A stretch of DNA of 32,000 nucleotides from Telmatocola sphagniphila (GTDB taxonomy: Bacteria > Planctomycetota > Planctomycetia > Gemmatales > Gemmataceae). Below are positions 11,944 to 29,965 of this stretch, piece after piece. The stretch spans positions 6,240,001-6,272,000 of the forward strand of contig NZ_CP074694.1 in NCBI RefSeq assembly GCF_018398935.1, written 5' to 3'. The stretch's first letter is position 1. Every line of letters starts with the position of its first letter. The notes beneath the pieces were generated by a model. That model worked only from the letters and a program-made list of their open reading frames with translations. It searched no databases and had not been told where the DNA came from. The position numbers were made by a program, and so were the translations under genes.

Positions 11944-12957
11944 TCAGCGGGCGAAAGTATCCCGTAGAAATTGCTGAACGCTTTCCCAGCGGTCGGCACT
12001 CTTCTCAAAAGAGACCTCCATGCGCCGGACTTGATCGGGGCGTTTCAGCGTTTCGTGCAGCTTGGTCTGACTGGCTGTCGAGAGCGGAATTTGGAAGCCT
12101 CCTTTCAGGGCCAGCTTGTCTTCCGTTCCGGGATTCAGGAGGAATTTCACGAGCTTTTGGGCGTTTTCCGGATTCGGCCGATTTTTCAGGATGCAGATCG
12201 TGTTCGGGATAAAAAGGGTTCCTAAGGCCGGGTATTTCGGATGAGCCTCCTGGTCGAGGTAGAGTATTTTCACCGGCCGTTTGTCGTTGTATTCTTCGAT
12301 GGCATCGTCGGTGTCGGTCAGCCCGGCGGCGAAATCGCCCCGAGCCACCCGCTCGGCCACCTGTTTATTCCCGGCTAAAATCGTGATATCATTGGCTTTT
12401 AAACCATTGAAAAACGCCTGAGCGCCTTCCTCGCCCAATACTTCGAACAAACAGGCCGCGTGCGTTGCGGTCGTGCCGAACTGAGGCTTGGCCATGGCCA
12501 GCTTGCTTTTCCATTTCGGATCGGTCAGATCGAGAATGGATTTGGGATAATCGGCTTCTTTCAGCTTTTCGGTGTTCACAATCAGGATGCGGCCCCGCGC
12601 AGCGAAGGCCTGCCAGCAGCCGCTTTCGGGACGCGTCCAGGCCGGGTAGTTGGGATCGGGCTCCATGCGATCGAGAAGACCTTTACGCTCGAGACGGATC
12701 GTGTTGATGATTTCGTTATTCCAGAAAACATCGCAGCGGGGTCGTTTCGCCTCCTGCACGAGCTCTTCGAACAGACTGACCGACTTATTAGCTTCCGTAT
12801 CGAACTTGGTGGCGACCGGGATGCCCGTTTCCTTCTCAAAACTCGAAAGAATTTCCTGGGCGTATTCCATGTCCTGGGCGCAATACAGCACGGCCCGATC
12901 CGGCGATTTTCCGCAGCCGGAGAGAAGGGCCAGGAGAAGCAAACAGAGATATTTCAT
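11944..12957 (-). CDS. Periplasmic solute-binding lipoprotein, Fe(3+)/FbpA-AfuA-like family
   Basis: 337-aa ORF with lipobox LLALLSGCG. VLYCAQDMEYAQEILSSFEKETGIPV, FWNNEI, WQAFAARGRILIVNT, AMAKPQFGTTATHAA and GLTDTDDA match iron-type extracellular solute-binding proteins. No permease or ATPase gene is adjacent. Confidence 0.8.
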   Translation of the reverse strand: MKYLCLLLLALLSGCGKSPDRAVLYCAQDMEYAQEILSSFEKETGIPVATKFDTEANKSVSLFEELVQEAKRPRCDVFWNNEIINTIRLERKGLLDRMEPDPNYPAWTRPESGCWQAFAARGRILIVNTEKLKEADYPKSILDLTDPKWKSKLAMAKPQFGTTATHAACLFEVLGEEGAQAFFNGLKANDITILAGNKQVAERVARGDFAAGLTDTDDAIEEYNDKRPVKILYLDQEAHPKYPALGTLFIPNTICILKNRPNPENAQKLVKFLLNPGTEDKLALKGGFQIPLSTASQTKLHETLKRPDQVRRMEVSFEKSADRWESVQQFLRDTFAR

Positions 12958-12969
12958 GACGTAGCCAGA

Positions 12970-14187
12970 TTAGAGGTTTCTATGAGAATGAAAGGCCATG
13001 GCGGCGAAGCTGACGCTTTCGAATCCTTCCGGATGCACATATTGATCGTATTTCAAAAGCTGGCCTTGCCCGGGTTGTAGCGCACTCAAGAACAGTGAAG
13101 TCGGGGGTAGTCCGCAAATTCTCCTTCGGTCCTGTTCCTGCTGGATCACCCGATAATAGGCTTGGGCATCCGCCTTCTCGGCCGCTTCCAAAATCCGTCT
13201 ATCCTGAAGACGACTCGCGGCCAGGACGGTTTCATTTACCGGTTCGGGATCGTCGAATTTCGGACCAATATGAGCCAGGTCCCCGCTGATGATGGTACAA
13301 AAAGGTTCCTGGATCTCGGCGGCCAGCTTGCGAAGAGACCGAACCATTCGTTGAATGTCATCTGCGGACTCGGGGGTCGATCCCGCTTCGATGCAATCGG
13401 CATAAGAACCGACCAGCAGGGGGACAATGCGAATCGGCTCCGGAATCAGGTGCTGCAGCAGGAGCACTTCCAGTTCAATCGAATGCTCGGGCAGATGAGC
13501 GATGGGATCGTTGAATAAACCTTCGCCGTATAACTCGACCAGGCGGTCGATGAGCTTCTGATCGGTTTCGACAACGCCGAGCGGCGTCGCGAAGTTTTGT
13601 CGAGTGAGTGTGAATCGTTCGCCCGAATAGTGCGAGGTGGCAATGATCAGGAACAAGCGGGCGCGGCTTCGCTCGACCAGTTCTTTGTAACCCCACCCGT
13701 AGACGGTGCCGCCGCGGCCGTAATCCATATGCGGCACCAAGAGCCCCTGTATCTCGCCGTCGCGGGCAACTCGGCTGCCCCATTCGCCCGGTAGGCCGGG
13801 GCCGCCGTCAGCTGTGAACAGGCGATTTAATTCCGAGGCGATGATCTTGGGATCTTCCGAATAACAGCCGATACAGGAGGGTTTGCGAACCGGCCCAAAA
13901 ATCAGCTCCTGAAATTTCCGGCTATCCAGATAAAGGCAATCGTCCAATTCCGACACCAGTCGAGCCAGATCTTCGATTGATGGGTAACCACTTCGATTCT
14001 GAGTAACCTGAAAGTGAATTTCGTGCAGAGTTCGCTGGCCATTGAATAAGCGAATGAATTCGAAGGAGAGAGCGTTGAGAGTAATAGTGGGGGACAGCCG
14101 GAGCTGATCCTCCAGAATGTAATCGAGCGACTGAGCCGTGATGAATAGTCCGGGGCGAAATCGGGGTTTTTTCAATCGCTCGGGCAC
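12970..14187 (-). CDS. Memo-family protein (AmmeMemoRadiSam system protein B-like) with a ~100-aa N-terminal PqqD/RRE-like extension
   Basis: 405-aa ORF with a GTG start preceded by AGGAG. Memo landmarks are LLVPHMDYGRGGTVYGWGY, IIATSHY, IISGDLAHIGPKF and RRICGLPP. The N-terminal segment PRFRPGLFITAQSLDYILEDQLRLSPTITLNALSFEFIRLFNGQRTLHEIHFQV...IEDLARLVSELDDCLYL resembles PqqD-type peptide-binding domains. Confidence 0.8.
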   Translation of the reverse strand: MPERLKKPRFRPGLFITAQSLDYILEDQLRLSPTITLNALSFEFIRLFNGQRTLHEIHFQVTQNRSGYPSIEDLARLVSELDDCLYLDSRKFQELIFGPVRKPSCIGCYSEDPKIIASELNRLFTADGGPGLPGEWGSRVARDGEIQGLLVPHMDYGRGGTVYGWGYKELVERSRARLFLIIATSHYSGERFTLTRQNFATPLGVVETDQKLIDRLVELYGEGLFNDPIAHLPEHSIELEVLLLQHLIPEPIRIVPLLVGSYADCIEAGSTPESADDIQRMVRSLRKLAAEIQEPFCTIISGDLAHIGPKFDDPEPVNETVLAASRLQDRRILEAAEKADAQAYYRVIQQEQDRRRICGLPPTSLFLSALQPGQGQLLKYDQYVHPEGFESVSFAAMAFHSHRNL

Positions 14188-14196
14188 CGCCGGCTC

Positions 14197-15663
14197 CTAC
14201 TTCTTGCTGATGGTAGCTATACCCGGCGAGGCATTGAATCCTTTCACCAGCTTCGCATCGGCCAGATTCCAAATTCGAACTTCCCCATTGTAATCTCCTG
14301 CGGCAAGCAGTTTTCCATCGGGGCTCAAAGCCAGGGAGTAGACCTGATCGGTCAAACCACTCAGAGTTTTGGTATTCTTTTGCGTCTCGGCTTCCCAGAT
14401 CTTCACAGTTTTGTCGGCACCCGCAGTGGCTAATAGCAGTCGATCCGGTGAGCTGAGGAGTTTCAAGATATCTTCGTTGTGTCCACCCAGAACTTTCAAT
14501 TGTTTCCCCTGGGGAACCGCTTCCCATTGCCGAAGGACATGATCGGCTCCCGCGGAGAAGGCTTTCTTCCCATCTTTAGACCAGGCCACGCCGTAGACGT
14601 TGTTCTGATGTTCCGGAAATGTCGTGATCGATTCTCTATTCATCAGATCCCAGATCTTGGCGGTTTTATCGCGGGCGCAAGAGAGCAACCGTTCGCCAGT
14701 CGCATCGAAGGCGAGCGCGAAAACCCAGTCCGCATGGTTATCAATAACCTGCTCCAGCTTGGCCCGCCGAGCGCCGGCACTGACATCCCAGACCCGAATG
14801 GTTCGATCGCAGCCCCCCGCAGCTAGTAGATTGCCGTCCGGGGAGATTGCGAGACAGAGAATGGAATCGTCGCTATCCAGCAGTTGTTTGCGGAACACCT
14901 GGGGATCGCTGACCCCATCGAGGAAAATAACTTCTCCTTCCTTTTTCCCGGCCGCCTGCAGGTTATAGACGCGAATGTCCCCTTCCTGGCCCGGTCGTGA
15001 ACCGGCGACTATCAGGGAGCCATCGCGGTGAAAGAGCATCGCCAGGGCCCGCTCGGCCCGGGTCCGGAGGCGCTTCGTGAGTTTACTGGAATCGACATTC
15101 CACACGGTCAGTTCGTGGTGACCTCCGGCGACGAGTTCCTTCCCATCGGGAGTGAACGCCAGTGCGGTGACCGGCATGGCGAACTTGTATTGCGTAGGCG
15201 ATGCGGGCGGTTGCCAGCGCACCCGCAACTCTTTCACCAAATCGCTTTTGGTATCGATGCCCGAATCGAGTTTGGCCCCTTGCTCAATCCAACGGCGAAC
15301 GATCTCCGCTTTCTCTTTGGGCACAGCACTGATGCCGTCTTTGCGGGGTGGCATACGGCGATCTTCATTCGTGACCATTAAGTCGTAAAGATCGCTCTCC
15401 TGCGGTTTGCCTGGCGATACGGTTTCCCCATTGGAGCCACCGGCGATCAGTCTGGCAAAGGTAGTCATCTCGTATTTGCCGGAACGCTTTTTGGCATCGT
15501 GACAGGCGAAGCAGTAGTCCTTCAGGATGGGAGCTACATCGTTGATGAAACTGACTGGTGCCGCGGGGGACTGGGCGCAGGTCGACGATTCGCTGTAACG
15601 GAGCAACCAGAGGATCAGTGCACTGAGTAGAGCACAGAAAACGCAGAAACGGAACGATTTCAT
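14197..15663 (-). CDS. Planctomycete cytochrome c (PSCyt1) domain protein fused to 7 WD40 repeats, with signal peptide
   Basis: 488-aa ORF with heme motif CFACH in VAPILKDYCFACHDAKKRSGKYEM...RRMPP. Seven WD40-like units follow (LTVWNV, IRVYNL, IRVWDV, AKIWDL, LRQWEA, VKIWEA, VRIWNL). The N-terminus is hydrophobic. Confidence 0.88.
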   Translation of the reverse strand: MKSFRFCVFCALLSALILWLLRYSESSTCAQSPAAPVSFINDVAPILKDYCFACHDAKKRSGKYEMTTFARLIAGGSNGETVSPGKPQESDLYDLMVTNEDRRMPPRKDGISAVPKEKAEIVRRWIEQGAKLDSGIDTKSDLVKELRVRWQPPASPTQYKFAMPVTALAFTPDGKELVAGGHHELTVWNVDSSKLTKRLRTRAERALAMLFHRDGSLIVAGSRPGQEGDIRVYNLQAAGKKEGEVIFLDGVSDPQVFRKQLLDSDDSILCLAISPDGNLLAAGGCDRTIRVWDVSAGARRAKLEQVIDNHADWVFALAFDATGERLLSCARDKTAKIWDLMNRESITTFPEHQNNVYGVAWSKDGKKAFSAGADHVLRQWEAVPQGKQLKVLGGHNEDILKLLSSPDRLLLATAGADKTVKIWEAETQKNTKTLSGLTDQVYSLALSPDGKLLAAGDYNGEVRIWNLADAKLVKGFNASPGIATISKK

Positions 15664-18192: not shown

Positions 18193-19581
18193 TCAGCGAT
18201 TTTTTACGGGCTCCACCGCCATCGTGAATTGCGGGGAGTAAATACTTCCCTGGGTCGGAATCAACGCTCGACCGGTCTGTTTCTGCCCTTCGATGTAGTA
18301 TTCCCCCGCCCATTGGATGCCGACTCGATCCTTCTGGCGAAAGATTCGCAATGGCTGTTCCAGATCGGGCAGACAGACGTGAACTTTTTCTCCCGGGCCC
18401 AGCACCAGAAGATCGGCCATCAACAGCACGGCATCCACGGCCATCGGCAAACGTCGCGAACCGGGGAAATCGAGCCGGGCGGAGGCACAACCGGGGACGG
18501 GCAAATTGAAGCGAATATTGCAGGATGCGTTCAGGGTCAACAAATCACCGACTTGCAGCACTCCCGCCCGCTCGATGCACTTTCCGTTTATCTGGACCTG
18601 CTGGCTCGATTCCAGAATGTAATTTTCATCATCGCGCTTCAAGGAGGCGTGGAATCGCGAAACATCGGCCATCAGAGGAATGTCCACGGGACCGCTCTCC
18701 AGACTGGCTTGACCAATGGTAACCTGCTGCCCCATGCAAACCAGAAAACCGCCGATGCCATCGATCCAGAGGTAAAATCGCTTGACCGGGGCCAGCGGCT
18801 CCAGCGGGAACGCATTGGAGGCGGAAGAAAATAAGGGCGAACCTTCGGAGGACGTCGGGTCGCTGCGGTAAGTGGGTGTTTCCGGTTGAACCGCCGTCCA
18901 GGCCCGACTGCGCAGCGTCTGCACATCGCGGTGCATGGGCGCGACGGCGAGGGCATCATCCGCATGTTTCAACACTTCGCGGGCATTCAGTTGATTGGCT
19001 GATTCCTGCAGCTTGGAAAAGGACTCCCGGAACCGATCTTCCCGGCGATCGAGTTCCCGCTCGAATTTCTCCAAGCCCGCAGGTACCTTGCCGAGTTTCT
19101 GCCGGCAGTTCTCAACGGCCTGCTTGGCCTGTGGAAAATCGCCGCGCTGGGCGTAATCCTCTGCCAGCGCCCATTCCTGCGAGGCCGCTTCCAGGAGCGT
19201 CAACTCGTTGGATTGGATCGGTTGTTCGCGGAGGTGGCCGATGAGGCGCAGGGCTTCCAGCGGTTTGCCGTTTTCGAGCGATTGGCGGATTCCCGTCAGT
19301 TCGAACTGGATCAGCTTTTCGCGAAGTTTGAGACCCGCTTTGTCGCCGGGGGCAATCGATTCAACTTTGGCGAGATCTTGCCAGGCGGCCTCGGGTGAGT
19401 TTTGAGCGAGGAATTTTTCGGCCCGTTCCACATAGCCCCGAACGACATCTGAGCGAAGTGCCCAGGCGCGCCGATTGCCCGAGGCGATGAGACTATCCAG
19501 CAGGCGATGGGCTTCTTCGGGGCGGCCGTTTTTAATTGCCTCCCGCGCCTGCCATTTCATTAACCACGCTGGTTCGCTCAT
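18193..19581 (-). CDS. TPR-like / FHA domain-containing protein
   Basis: 462-aa ORF. The N-terminal ~230 aa are helical-repeat-like. The C-terminal part shows an FHA pattern: FYLWIDGIGGFLVCMGQQVTIGQ...VDIPLMADVSRFHASLKRDDENYILESSQQVQINGKCIERAGVLQVGDLLTL (S-R-x-H and N-G conserved). Confidence 0.75.
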   Translation of the reverse strand: MSEPAWLMKWQAREAIKNGRPEEAHRLLDSLIASGNRRAWALRSDVVRGYVERAEKFLAQNSPEAAWQDLAKVESIAPGDKAGLKLREKLIQFELTGIRQSLENGKPLEALRLIGHLREQPIQSNELTLLEAASQEWALAEDYAQRGDFPQAKQAVENCRQKLGKVPAGLEKFERELDRREDRFRESFSKLQESANQLNAREVLKHADDALAVAPMHRDVQTLRSRAWTAVQPETPTYRSDPTSSEGSPLFSSASNAFPLEPLAPVKRFYLWIDGIGGFLVCMGQQVTIGQASLESGPVDIPLMADVSRFHASLKRDDENYILESSQQVQINGKCIERAGVLQVGDLLTLNASCNIRFNLPVPGCASARLDFPGSRRLPMAVDAVLLMADLLVLGPGEKVHVCLPDLEQPLRIFRQKDRVGIQWAGEYYIEGQKQTGRALIPTQGSIYSPQFTMAVEPVKNR

Positions 19582-20688: not shown

Positions 20689-23409
20689 TTGATTGGTTGT
20701 GTACGGGTTTTTAATTATTGTTTTCCCTGTGTCATTGCGTACCACGTGAATATTTGGAAATCGAAAATCCGATTCGATCAAATTCCGGCCGGAAATGGGG
20801 CTGGAAGCGCGAATTGCCTGCCTAACACCGAATCCTCCACGCATTTTGAAGTGGCCGGGGCGAATGTTACCCGGGCGACCGATACCCGTCTGGGAAATTC
20901 CAAGCAAAAACTTCAGATTCCCGATGAAATTGATGGCCGGTACAACCTCTTTGAAGAGCTGGCTACCGGCGGCATGGGACGGGTTTATAAAGCCTATGAC
21001 CGCGTTCTGAATCGCAATATCGCCCTAAAAATCCTGCGCAGCCGGTTCATGGCGCAGGACGAAATTGCCTTGCGATTCATGGAAGAAGCCCAGATCATGG
21101 CCCGACTCCAGCATCCCGGCGTAGTGCCCGTCTATGAGACCGGAAAGCTCAAGGACGGACGACCGTTCATCGCGATGAAGCTGATCGAGGGTTGCACACT
21201 TAAAAATTTGCTTACGGATCGCAGTAATCCCAAGCAGGAACTTGCCCACTACATCAATATTTTCGAACAGGTTTGCCAGACTGTCGCCTTCGGCCATTCC
21301 CGCGGCATCATTCATCGCGATATTAAGCCCGAAAACATCATGGTGGGAGCTTTCGGGGAAGTTCTGGTGATGGATTGGGGCTTAGCGAAAAGTCTCGATC
21401 CCAAATTCGCCTCGCTACAGCCTTCCTTGCAGTGGCCGGTCTCGAAAAATGAGATCGATGACGAAATTGAAGACTTTGAAGACACCAAAGTTATCAAAGT
21501 GAATATGGTTCCGGCGCGTATGCCGGAGGAAAATATCACGAACGCTGGTCAGATTCTGGGCACCTTCCAGTACATGCCCCCGGAGCAGGCTCGGGGGGAC
21601 CACGATAAGCTCTCCTTCCAAAGCGACGTATTTTCCCTGGGCGCCCTACTTTGCGAATTGTTGACCGGCAGCCCGCCCTACAGTTCCGTTAAAGCAGAGG
21701 CCCGGCGGCAGGCTCAAGAAGCCGACCTCCGTCATGCATTCAACATGTTGAATGATTCCGGGGCGGATGCCGACCTGATTCAACTGGCCAAACACTGTTT
21801 AAACGAAAATCCGCACGATCGTCCCAAATCGGCCGAGCAAGTGGCTCTGTCGGTAGGATCTTATCTGCGCGGCGTTCAGGAACGCTTGCATAATGATCTG
21901 GTTCGTCGGATTGCCGCTCAGGCGCACGATCACCACACCCGGCATAAATCGCAAGTTATCAAACAGTTTCGCAATAATGCGATTCTGACATCCATTGCAC
22001 TGTTCATTGTTTTCGTGACCGTCGGATCCTTCCTTCTGATGTACCGCAATCAGCAGTTTCATCAGCGGTACGTCCAGACAGCCCAACAGGAATCGGCCCG
22101 CAAGGAACTCGACCATAAACTGGAAAATGTCACAGCGCTTCTGGGCAAACTTTCCACCAATTCCAGCGATTTCAGCCAGTCGATCGACACGGTGGAGCAG
22201 GCGAGCCAATTGATGCTCGATGCCGATTCCCTCGCTCAACAGACTGCACAACCTATCGCCGATAAAGCCCGAGTCGACGAGTTACGCTCGCAGTGTGATT
22301 CCTGGAAGCAAAATCTGATTTTGTTGGCCGATTTGGAGCGGATCTCTTTTGAGGATGACGAACTCCGACCCGTGAAAAATCGATCCGAAGAGGTCGGCCG
22401 TCGCTATCAGACTGCTTTCCAAAATCATCCTTTGAAACCGCTCGACGGTCCTTTGGAAGATGCCAAAGCCCGACTGCAAGGGTCGTCCATCGAAAGGCTG
22501 CTGCGACCGCATTTGTTAAAATGGTTGAGCCTCGCCGTGGAAGCCGAGCAAAGAAATCGTCTCTCGGGGTTGTTGAAATTTGAAGGGCCCAATCAAAATC
22601 AGATGGCCACTGAATGGCTGCGAGCCGTTCAGAAGAAGGACTCTGATACGCTGGTGCCGATGACCCGATTTTTGCTTTCGGCGAAGTTCGAAGCGGCGGA
22701 ACTCCGCGTTTTCGCCGAGCAGATTTATCAGCTGGGCCATCCCGAAGCCGCTGAGAAAATTCTTTTGAGTGCCCAAGTCAACAATCCAGAGTCCTACGAA
22801 GTCAATCGAGATCTGGGTAGGCTCTATCGACATATACCAGGACGTTCTTCGGATGCCGTTCGCTTTTGTACGGCGGCGTTATATTTACATCCGCGTTCCC
22901 CACTGCCGCATCTGGCTCTGGCCTCGGCGTTACGGGAAGATCATAAAGATGCGGCGGCTCTGCAAGAACTGAAAAACGCCCTGAAGTTGAACGAAACAGA
23001 CTTTCAGACCAACGTCCTTCTGGCAGAACTGGATCGCGAGCAAGGGCGTTTTGCCCAGGCCCTTGTGGCCTATCGCCGCATTCTCACCAAGCCCGAAGAC
23101 CTGAGCCGCGAACAACTTGGCAAAACGAGATTATCTGCCGCGGAAGTGGCGATTCAAGCTACGGCGAGCGATGCCGCCCGCGCACCCGCTCTGCGGCTCG
23201 AAGCGCTGAACTTTCTTCGAAATCAGTGGGTGGCTTGTAGCATGGACCGCCGGCCGGAAGATCGCAGCGAGTTCGAAAGCTGGCTGAAAAATGAAATTTT
23301 TGCCCCCGTCCGGAAACCCTCCTTTCTCGAAAAATTGGATGAGAAAGAGCGTGCGGACTGGACCACCTTCTGGCAGGAAGTGGAAAGTGGACTGCAAATC
23401 AATCCCTGA
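20689..23409 (+). CDS. Transmembrane Ser/Thr protein kinase with C-terminal TPR-like region
   Basis: Hanks motifs GGMGRVYKA, IALKIL, HRDIKPENIMV, DWGLAK (DFG variant) and GTFQYMPPE. One TM (AILTSIALFIVFVTVGSFLLMY) is followed by ~430 helical/TPR-like aa. No in-frame ATG precedes the kinase domain. TTG 20689, GTG 20746 and GTG 20851 are the candidates, so the start is uncertain. Confidence 0.9.
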   Translation: MIGCVRVFNYCFPCVIAYHVNIWKSKIRFDQIPAGNGAGSANCLPNTESSTHFEVAGANVTRATDTRLGNSKQKLQIPDEIDGRYNLFEELATGGMGRVYKAYDRVLNRNIALKILRSRFMAQDEIALRFMEEAQIMARLQHPGVVPVYETGKLKDGRPFIAMKLIEGCTLKNLLTDRSNPKQELAHYINIFEQVCQTVAFGHSRGIIHRDIKPENIMVGAFGEVLVMDWGLAKSLDPKFASLQPSLQWPVSKNEIDDEIEDFEDTKVIKVNMVPARMPEENITNAGQILGTFQYMPPEQARGDHDKLSFQSDVFSLGALLCELLTGSPPYSSVKAEARRQAQEADLRHAFNMLNDSGADADLIQLAKHCLNENPHDRPKSAEQVALSVGSYLRGVQERLHNDLVRRIAAQAHDHHTRHKSQVIKQFRNNAILTSIALFIVFVTVGSFLLMYRNQQFHQRYVQTAQQESARKELDHKLENVTALLGKLSTNSSDFSQSIDTVEQASQLMLDADSLAQQTAQPIADKARVDELRSQCDSWKQNLILLADLERISFEDDELRPVKNRSEEVGRRYQTAFQNHPLKPLDGPLEDAKARLQGSSIERLLRPHLLKWLSLAVEAEQRNRLSGLLKFEGPNQNQMATEWLRAVQKKDSDTLVPMTRFLLSAKFEAAELRVFAEQIYQLGHPEAAEKILLSAQVNNPESYEVNRDLGRLYRHIPGRSSDAVRFCTAALYLHPRSPLPHLALASALREDHKDAAALQELKNALKLNETDFQTNVLLAELDREQGRFAQALVAYRRILTKPEDLSREQLGKTRLSAAEVAIQATASDAARAPALRLEALNFLRNQWVACSMDRRPEDRSEFESWLKNEIFAPVRKPSFLEKLDEKERADWTTFWQEVESGLQINP

Positions 23410-28444: not shown

Positions 28445-28915
28445 ATGTATAAGGCTTTACAGGTAGCCGAAGCCATTTTGGCGTACTGCTACGAACAGGA
28501 ACATTCCTGTAGCAATCGTAAACTGCAAATGCTGCTCTATTACGTTCAAGGCTGGCATTTGGCGACCGCGGACGAACCTCTTTTCGATGAAGTGATACAT
28601 GCCGGGCCGATCGGCCCAGTGATTCACACCGTCGAAAGGCGTTATAAAGGGCATGGGAATCGACCCATCCACGTATATATCATTGATGCGGCGTATCACG
28701 AAAAACTGCGTCCCATCGTCAGCGAAGTCTGGTCGGCCTACGGAGATATGACCGATTTCGATCTTCAGAAATTGATTCAGGAAGAAATTCCCTATTTGGC
28801 CGCCCGACAGGATCTCATTCCGACCGACCCCGCCTTACCGGCGATTTCCATCGACGAACTTTGGGTTTTCTTCCAGGATCAACTGTCTGCCCGCGAAGCG
28901 TATAGCCGGAATTGA
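28445..28915 (+). CDS. Panacea / DUF4065 domain protein (SocA/GepA/PanA antitoxin-type)
   Basis: 156-aa ORF with GGAGG 7 nt upstream of the ATG. VAEAILAYC...NRKLQMLLYYVQGWHLATADEPLFDEVIHAGPIGPVIHTVERRYKGHGNRPI matches the DUF4065 signature (KLQKLLYY.QGW.L....PLF.E.....GPV...Y). The gene is AT-richer than its neighbours. Confidence 0.75.
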   Translation: MYKALQVAEAILAYCYEQEHSCSNRKLQMLLYYVQGWHLATADEPLFDEVIHAGPIGPVIHTVERRYKGHGNRPIHVYIIDAAYHEKLRPIVSEVWSAYGDMTDFDLQKLIQEEIPYLAARQDLIPTDPALPAISIDELWVFFQDQLSAREAYSRN

Positions 28916-29104: not shown

Positions 29105-29965
29105 GTGAAGATTTCGGATATCGAAACAAAAGGACTATCCTTAGTCCTTGCTACACCGAAACAAGTTGAATCGCTTGAAAACGAGCTCTGGATTACATTT
29201 CCCAAAGGCTATCTACAGTACATTACCAAAATTGGGGAAGGCATATTAGGCGGTCATTACATTCGAATTTATCCACCTTGGAGAATCAAATCAGAACTCA
29301 CGGATTGGCGAAACAGAATCAAAAAATATTGGTTCTGGGAAAAAGGAAAGAAAATTCTCCCCCAAACACGAGCCCTAGAGTGTGTAATACTAGGAGACAC
29401 TTTGGATGGGGATGAAATTGTTTTCCATCCTGCAAAACCTCAAACTATTTTCATTTTGCCACGTAATTTCGAAAAAATTTTTGCGGTCGAAGGAGGACTG
29501 TTTGAAGCGATCGATTGGCTGTGTACCGCGGGTAAATTAACGAAAGCTTTCACGGAACGGGAGATCGTTCCATTCGATAGCCGAAAGCAGAACTCCGAAG
29601 GCTCGATGTCTGCCCAAAAAGAAGCTGATCCCCCAGGTGAGTCTCTTTCGGAGCTAATAGATGCGGGAAAGAGATGGGCCAAGCGGAATAAAGCATTCAA
29701 GACCTGTAAAGAGATCTTGAAAAATATTGTCGGAGAGCAGGAAGAGACCAAGGTTATTTACGAGGCAATCGGGTTCCAAGGAGATTACCCCTATTCAGCT
29801 GGTTGCTATATTTCAGTTATCGAGGTAATTGATTCACAAACCAAATTAAGTTTAGGCTTTTTAACAGCTCATGTGAATGAGGGGAGTTACGGAAGCAGCT
29901 TCGAAGCCAACAAAGCAAACAGAAAAAAATTGGGACGAAAATTAGATCCTCATGCGCCAGGATAA
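29105..29965 (+). CDS. SUKH (SMI1/KNR4)-like N-terminal domain fused to an unassigned ~120-aa C-terminal region
   Basis: 286-aa ORF with a GTG start 9 nt after AAAGGAG. VESLENELWITFPKGYLQYITKIGEGILGG and CVILGDTLDGDEIVFHPAKPQTIFILPRNFEKIFAVEGGLFEAIDWL fit the SMI1/KNR4 pattern (E..LG..LP..Y..FL...NGG ... G..Y.......V....F.EFL). No motif recognised in residues ~165-286. One 60-nt line counted by hand gives about 38% GC. Confidence 0.6.
   Translation: MKISDIETKGLSLVLATPKQVESLENELWITFPKGYLQYITKIGEGILGGHYIRIYPPWRIKSELTDWRNRIKKYWFWEKGKKILPQTRALECVILGDTLDGDEIVFHPAKPQTIFILPRNFEKIFAVEGGLFEAIDWLCTAGKLTKAFTEREIVPFDSRKQNSEGSMSAQKEADPPGESLSELIDAGKRWAKRNKAFKTCKEILKNIVGEQEETKVIYEAIGFQGDYPYSAGCYISVIEVIDSQTKLSLGFLTAHVNEGSYGSSFEANKANRKKLGRKLDPHAPG

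Follow-up and report, generated by a model that had tools for sequence, protein, structure and literature searches.

What does an RRE-like domain do at the N-terminus of a Memo-family protein? A gene of Telmatocola sphagniphila (Planctomycetota; Gemmataceae) raises this question. It lies on the minus strand at positions 12970-14187 of the window, i.e., the whole 32,000-nucleotide stretch of DNA analysed here (positions 6,240,001 to 6,272,000 of the forward strand of contig NZ_CP074694.1, assembly GCF_018398935.1). To our knowledge, no agreed biochemical function exists for Memo proteins, either in humans (MEMO1) or in bacteria. The product of the gene has 405 residues and two domains: one resembling the recognition elements of ribosomally synthesised and post-translationally modified peptides (RiPP recognition elements, RREs), and a Memo core. 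It is best explained as a cytoplasmic two-domain enzyme, in which an RRE homologue is joined to a Memo-family domain that has kept its metal-site residues.

Kinship of the N-terminal domain to PqqD

A first-pass annotation, made from the letters of this DNA alone, had placed about 100 residues ahead of the Memo core and compared them to PqqD. The segment it delimited, 13888-14187, comprises codons 1-100 of the open reading frame (ORF), and the peptide it quoted spans residues 8-87. The position of this segment ahead of the core was borne out by all three comparisons made with known Memo proteins. The Pfam Memo model (PF01875) matches residues 145-397 (E = 1.7e-35; 123 bits, cut-off 27), the NCBIfam model TIGR04336 matches residues 109-382 from profile position 10 onwards (94.7 bits, cut-off 26), and the alignment with human MEMO1 begins at residue 136. 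The gene and its parts are as follows:

12970-14187, minus strand: complete RRE-Memo gene, including the stop codon (ORF list, Pfam Memo, homologues, AlphaFold2 model)
14194-14198, minus strand: Shine-Dalgarno-like AGGAG, which precedes the GTG start by 6 nucleotides and overlaps the stop codon (TAG) of the upstream gene (read from the sequence)
13924-14187, minus strand: PqqD-like RRE domain, residues 1-88 (AlphaFold2 models, Foldseek, hhalign, conservation profile)
13891-13923, minus strand: linker helix between the RRE and the Memo core, residues 89-99, with a conserved 'RF' motif (F92) (helix at residues 90-97 in both models)
12973-13890, minus strand: Memo / LigB-fold core, residues 100-405 (Pfam, TIGR04336, Foldseek, MEMO1 alignment)
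13864-13875, minus strand: C105-I-G-C108 motif ('PSCIGCY') at the entry to the Memo core (clade alignment)

The first-pass annotation had allowed that the true start codon might lie downstream of the extension; the evidence places it upstream. The GTG at 14185-14187 is the earliest start possible downstream of an in-frame stop codon and is preceded by the AGGAG at a distance of 6 nucleotides. Moreover, the extension is present from residue ~8 in every full-length relative, which shows that it is not a start-codon artefact. Together, the position of the GTG, the AGGAG, and the alignment of relatives from residue ~8 rule out a mis-called start as the source of the extension.

AlphaFold2 modelled the full-length protein with a predicted local distance difference test score (pLDDT) of 91.7 and a predicted template modelling score of 0.88; the isolated domain (residues 1-98) was modelled with a pLDDT of 90.2. 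Secondary structure assignment of the models by DSSP gave three strands (residues 14-19, 22-27, and 35-37), then three helices (39-45, 54-62, and 71-83), and finally the linker helix (90-97). When the isolated domain was searched against the PDB with Foldseek, nearly all of the best matches were RREs, namely ThcOx, TbiB1, TruD, FusB1, PbtF-RRE, TigE, TbtB, and CteB. TbiB1 was matched with a target-normalised TM-score (TMt) of 0.75-0.78 and a root-mean-square deviation of 2.6 Å over 83 columns, and stand-alone RREs with a TMt of 0.71-0.78, a probability of ~1.0, and E-values of 7e-3 to 0.5. The sheet followed by three helices, and the solved RREs that head the PDB matches, agree with the RRE fold that had been anticipated from the sequence.

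Profile comparisons point in the same direction. We compared an alignment of 46 diverse extensions with an alignment of 20 PqqD proteins using hhalign, which returned a probability of 91.9% (P = 7e-7) over 87 columns, i.e., the whole domain. The reversed PqqD alignment scored 0.6% and each of 30 column shuffles at most 2.2%. In direct scans with hidden Markov models, residues 1-110 of the window protein had no Pfam or NCBIfam match. Among the 46 relatives, PqqD (PF05402) was the commonest weak Pfam match (seven sequences; best E = 0.0017), and PaaA-like_N was matched weakly in three. A narrow, Gemmataceae-only profile searched against PDB sequences left PaaA and PqqD below threshold among EF-hand noise; a broader family profile improved the RRE segment of PaaA, its best match, to E = 0.0018, with PqqD (3g2b, 5sxy) remaining at E ~0.4. 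The first-pass expectation of a match to PqqD profiles was realised in the profile-profile comparison and, weakly, in Pfam matches of relatives, whereas the window protein itself gives no PqqD match in Pfam. None of the three outcomes that the first-pass annotation had named as refuting was observed. Its central claim of a PqqD/RRE-like domain is upheld by the hhalign result, the modelled fold, and the Foldseek matches. Overall, these independent analyses identify the extension as a PqqD homologue, i.e., an RRE, with a likeness to PqqD beyond chance.

The likeness extends to details. The domain shares with PqqD (PF05402; PDB 3g2b, 5sxy) a 'P.lR.g' opening, a hydrophobic second strand, a 'DG..t' turn ahead of helix alpha2, and an amphipathic helix alpha3. 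However, PqqD is a stand-alone protein of ~92 residues encoded beside the peptide PqqA and the radical S-adenosylmethionine (SAM) enzyme PqqE, whereas the domain described here forms part of a Memo enzyme, lacks any linked gene for a peptide or a radical SAM enzyme, and scores too low for the Pfam threshold. Its best structural matches are the lasso-peptide B1 proteins TbiB1 and FusB1 (5v1u, 5v1v, 6jx3) and the RREs of ThcOx, TruD, and PbtF; judging by the entry titles, several of these structures (TbiB1, FusB1, PbtF) include a bound leader peptide. These proteins differ from the window domain in being 13-20% identical to it in sequence and in residing in RiPP clusters with identifiable precursors.

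It is very improbable that the N-terminal region is instead unrelated to PqqD, whether as a generic nucleic-acid-binding winged helix, a chance likeness, or the product of a mis-called start. Such an origin would fit the missing Pfam match on the extension of the window protein, the listing of Rv2067c and PKMT by Foldseek, and the helix-turn-helix families among the weak Pfam matches. However, a sheet followed by three helices is the order of RREs and not the usual order of winged helices, the hhalign score against PqqD far exceeds those of the shuffled controls, and neither the start codon nor the conservation from residue 8 onwards is in doubt. The domain is also acidic (median net charge -5), which makes it ill-suited to nucleic-acid binding as a winged helix. 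The PKMT_2nd model matches true PqqD proteins as well: in precomputed Pfam annotation, bona fide PqqD proteins (P0391-P0397 and others from Xanthomonas) are also listed with PF21782 (PKMT C-terminal winged helix). Weak matches of the Memo N-terminal domain to PKMT_2nd and Rv2067c hence indicate the same fold rather than another. A DNA-binding winged helix is ruled out by topology and charge, and chance resemblance or a DNA-binding role can be regarded as effectively excluded.

Spread of the fusion and the Memo metal site

Homologues of the window protein number more than 1800, with a full length of ~400 residues. The best 120 are of this length and cover 91-99% of the query (nearly all 97-99%), N-terminus included; those that are named belong to Gemmataceae. 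Barring one metagenomic copy of itself, the window protein is at most 59% identical to any database protein. We also searched 1.84 billion representative proteins exhaustively with a profile of the extension only. Clustered at 50% identity, the matches numbered 1237 with an E-value of 1e-3 or below and 271 with one of 1e-10 or below. Among the best 150 matches, all 45 proteins of 380-450 residues consist of the N-terminal domain followed by a Memo core, and these 45 representatives align to most or all of the window protein at 25-51% identity. The short matches that were inspected extend into the start of the Memo core and look like fragments at contig ends. A second search, seeded from the distant branch of the family, recovered named members from Latescibacteria, Poribacteria, and other Planctomycetes. 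The occurrence of members in several phyla indicates that the fusion is old and widespread; judged from these sequences, it is maintained under selection across phyla.

Within the N-terminal domain, R11, D27, and G50 are invariant across the family, and P8, L81, D82, and L87 nearly so. In an alignment of 27 Gemmataceae-type sequences, in which the extension can be aligned from residue ~8, the invariant positions are R11, D27, G50, L81, L87, and F92.

The full-length model was matched best by MEMO1 (7kq8/3bcz; TMt 0.80, E = 4e-17), with LigB-type extradiol dioxygenases as the next structural relatives. Five residues of the core align with the metal-site motifs of MEMO1:

13729-13731, minus strand: H153, putative metal site (codon checked)
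13630-13632, minus strand: H186, putative metal site (codon checked)
13279-13281, minus strand: D303, putative metal site (codon checked)
13270-13272, minus strand: H306, putative metal site (codon checked)
13114-13116, minus strand: C358, putative metal site (codon checked)

We take their MEMO1 equivalents to be His49, His81, Asp189, His192, and Cys244; the assignment of C244 to the metal site agrees with the title of PDB entry 7m8h. Close relatives keep all five residues without exception, the distant branch shows them as invariant or nearly so, and the catalytic centre accordingly looks intact at the level of conserved residues. The window protein thus shares its core fold and the positions of its His/His/Asp/His/Cys set with human MEMO1 (3bcz, 7kq8, 7l5c), which has been crystallised with iron and with copper, going by the entry titles. 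It differs from MEMO1, to which it is ~20% identical, in being ~100 residues longer and in carrying the N-terminal RRE that MEMO1 and other canonical Memo proteins lack. As reported in PMC7694686, which cites Qiu et al. (2008) for the finding, the active-site cleft of MEMO1 binds an ErbB2 phosphopeptide.

A further feature sets the Gemmataceae clade, to which the window protein belongs, apart within the RRE-Memo fusions: its Memo core opens with a C-x-G-C motif. Across the 27 Gemmataceae-type sequences, C105 is invariant and C108 is at least 90% conserved, and C105-x-G-C108-Y stands where the consensus of distant-branch Memo proteins reads 'AGxxYP'. The C-I-G-C motif may provide an additional site for metal binding or redox chemistry.

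A possible peptide substrate and the genes around the fusion

By analogy with characterised RREs, we hold with moderate confidence that the RRE would deliver a peptide or protein substrate to the Memo metal centre. According to this model, the RRE would bind a short stretch of the peptide or protein as an added strand beside strand beta3 and against helix alpha3; the rest of the substrate would be held at the metal centre and be modified there in a redox or oxygen-dependent reaction. As no substrate gene is linked to the RRE-Memo gene, the substrate would have to be encoded at another locus. The lack of a linked gene would also favour a housekeeping-type modification of peptides or proteins over a classical RiPP gene cluster.

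The context of the gene was surveyed in 80 species-representative Gemmataceae loci and in eight contexts from the distant branch, i.e., ~88 loci in all, none of which shows a RiPP-like cluster. ORFs of 20-110 residues within 2.5 kb of the gene were collected and clustered. The small-ORF clusters that recurred in the 80 Gemmataceae loci were all either shadow ORFs of hydrolase or WD40 genes, or of low complexity. The first-pass remark that the operon holds no obvious precursor-peptide gene therefore extends to related loci.

Several results weigh against peptide delivery by an RRE. The 80 Gemmataceae loci and seven distant loci yielded no conserved small ORF within 2.5 kb of the gene, no RiPP-type neighbour (protease, transporter, or radical SAM enzyme) recurs across the eight distant contexts, and no gene of the window suggests a RiPP cluster. 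As for the domain itself, the window protein has no PF05402 (PqqD) match even at E <= 10, and its Foldseek E-values are modest (7e-3 and weaker), as is usual for so small a fold (~85 residues). Finally, the most conserved positions (L81, D82, L87, and F92) fall at the end of helix alpha3 and in the linker; their conservation could stem from packing on the Memo domain rather than from a ligand groove.

These observations bear on a second explanation, the main rival, which we regard as possible though doubtful: the RRE-like domain would have lost recognition of a substrate peptide and be a lid, an oligomerisation module, or a partner-docking module, and the Memo core would act on a small, possibly aromatic metabolite, whose product would pass in many Gemmataceae to a translationally coupled alpha/beta-hydrolase, much as an extradiol dioxygenase hands its product to a meta-cleavage-product hydrolase. 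The empty precursor search, the peak of conservation at the alpha3 end and linker, and the kinship of the core to LigB-type extradiol dioxygenases are each consistent with it. So is the gene order, given that an alpha/beta-hydrolase gene (Abhydrolase_1) directly follows the Memo gene in 27 of 73 Gemmataceae loci, mostly with a 4-nucleotide overlap (L008, L010 at L010:11197-12126, L022, L027, L051, L058, L064, L067, L070, and others). The best NCBIfam matches of the hydrolase, far below threshold, are 3-oxoadipate enol-lactonase and related hydrolases. On the other hand, generic alpha/beta-hydrolases commonly give weak matches of this PcaD type, and no homologue of the hydrolase occurs in the window or in any of the eight distant contexts. 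The invariant polar residues R11 and D27, together with a complete RRE fold kept throughout the family, suggest more than a spacer, and characterised RREs are established to bind a peptide or a peptide-carrying partner (PMC12710340).

The pairing of Memo and hydrolase genes recalls that of a dioxygenase with a hydrolase of the ring-cleavage product. We also observed that seven loci from metagenome-assembled genomes in ENA, recorded as 'uncultured Alcaligenaceae bacterium' (L009, L011, L029, L058, L061, L068, and L074), carry loci ~50% identical to the Gemmataceae-type gene of the window, and that two of them (L058 and L074) also have the Gemmataceae-like downstream hydrolase. The taxonomy of these records looks wrong.

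A third explanation takes the name in public annotation at face value. PGAP and JGI call the window protein 'AmmeMemoRadiSam system protein B', as they do relatives such as P0007, P0023, P0067, P0304, and P0318. The protein would then be component B of this system, working with unlinked AMMECR1 and radical SAM proteins, and the RRE would dock either the radical SAM enzyme or the peptide of that enzyme, in the way that PqqD docks PqqE. The core does score above the cut-off of TIGR04336, the model for protein B, and PqqD-type RREs classically pair with radical SAM enzymes. We nevertheless judge this explanation unlikely. Canonical B proteins have ~270 residues and no N-terminal RRE; the profile is itself 270 positions long and matches the window protein from residue 109. 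The three-gene context is also missing. Neither AMMECR1 nor a radical SAM gene was found among ORFs of at least 150 residues in the 32-kb window, or in the conserved-neighbour clusters of the 80 Gemmataceae loci. In the eight distant contexts, AMMECR1 was not found at all and six lack a radical SAM gene. Of the remaining two, L087 has a MiaB/RimO-type gene two genes away, and L088 has an adjacent radical SAM gene without a TIGR04337 match. The lack of AMMECR1 or a matching radical SAM gene near any of the ~88 loci makes the name doubtful, and it is probably an over-annotation for the RRE-bearing subfamily.

In the window, the Memo gene is flanked on both sides by genes for predicted exported proteins. 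The upstream gene (14197-15663, minus strand), whose stop codon lies 9 nucleotides from the Memo start, encodes a WD40 propeller with a signal peptide and a cytochrome-like N-terminal region bearing a CxxCH-like 'CFACH' motif. In 17 of the 80 Gemmataceae loci, the Memo gene is likewise preceded by a WD40 orthologue; at least in Limnoglobus roseus (L065), a Ser/Thr kinase gene (L065:8392-9945) lies between the two. The WD40/cytochrome-like product is probably exported, as its signal peptide suggests, and for this reason we rejected it as a partner of the Memo protein. Downstream lie genes for a solute-binding lipoprotein (11944-12957) and then a metallo-beta-lactamase-fold protein; the lipoprotein gene is not conserved beside the Memo gene in the other loci. 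The eight distant contexts have no neighbour in common.

Farther away in the window, a few kb from the Memo gene, are genes for an FHA/TPR-domain protein (18193-19581, minus strand) and a 906-residue Ser/Thr kinase with TPR repeats (20689-23409, plus strand). Kinases are abundant in planctomycetes and this proximity may be coincidental. A SocA/Panacea antitoxin-domain ORF (28445-28915, plus strand) is followed by an ORF (29105-29965, plus strand) with weak, sub-threshold SUKH/SMI1-KNR4 matches; the pair may be a small locus of the toxin-antitoxin or immunity kind, with no relation to the Memo gene.

Prior work and significance

The fusion of an RRE to a Memo domain has already been published as an observation of a single line. 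In a Foldseek search for new RRE fusions, Bregman et al. (mSystems, November 2025; PMC12710340) explicitly named 'Memo-like proteins (PF01875)' as one such fusion, without precedent in RiPPs. They reported high-confidence predicted RRE folds for these fusions and added the hidden Markov model RREFam044 'Memo_RRE' to RRE-Finder, with no function or substrate assigned. The architecture of RRE plus PF01875 is identical to that of the window protein, and in both cases the RRE was found by structure and not through Pfam. We provisionally place the window protein in RREFam044 on the basis of this architecture and of the size of the single family found; it is a new, fairly divergent member of the architecture. 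We found no further publication on the RRE-Memo fusion, in a search that did not cover the survey of the PCAD-Memo superfamily by Burroughs et al. (2019).

To the published observation, the present analysis adds a controlled demonstration of homology to PqqD and shows how large the family is and how widely it is spread among phyla. It also adds the apparent integrity of the metal site and the finding that genes for a precursor, AMMECR1, or a radical SAM partner are not linked to the fusion in the loci surveyed. The lack of a linked precursor argues that the usual genome mining for an adjacent peptide would not find the substrate.

A bolder and rather improbable extension of peptide delivery would make RRE-Memo a widespread, unclustered system for RRE-dependent post-translational modification. 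The tail of an unlinked peptide or protein would be captured by the RRE, and an aromatic side chain, e.g., of tyrosine or dihydroxyphenylalanine (DOPA), would be oxidised or cleaved at the Memo centre; in many Gemmataceae, the coupled hydrolase would process the ring-opened product. If this is true, the Memo family would gain its first biochemical reaction, one that parallels the binding of a phosphotyrosine peptide by MEMO1. The isolated RRE domain could serve as bait and hence offers an experimental handle on the substrate. Concrete clues to the class of substrate on which Memo proteins act are few, and a fused peptide-recognition domain with conservation in several phyla counts among them.

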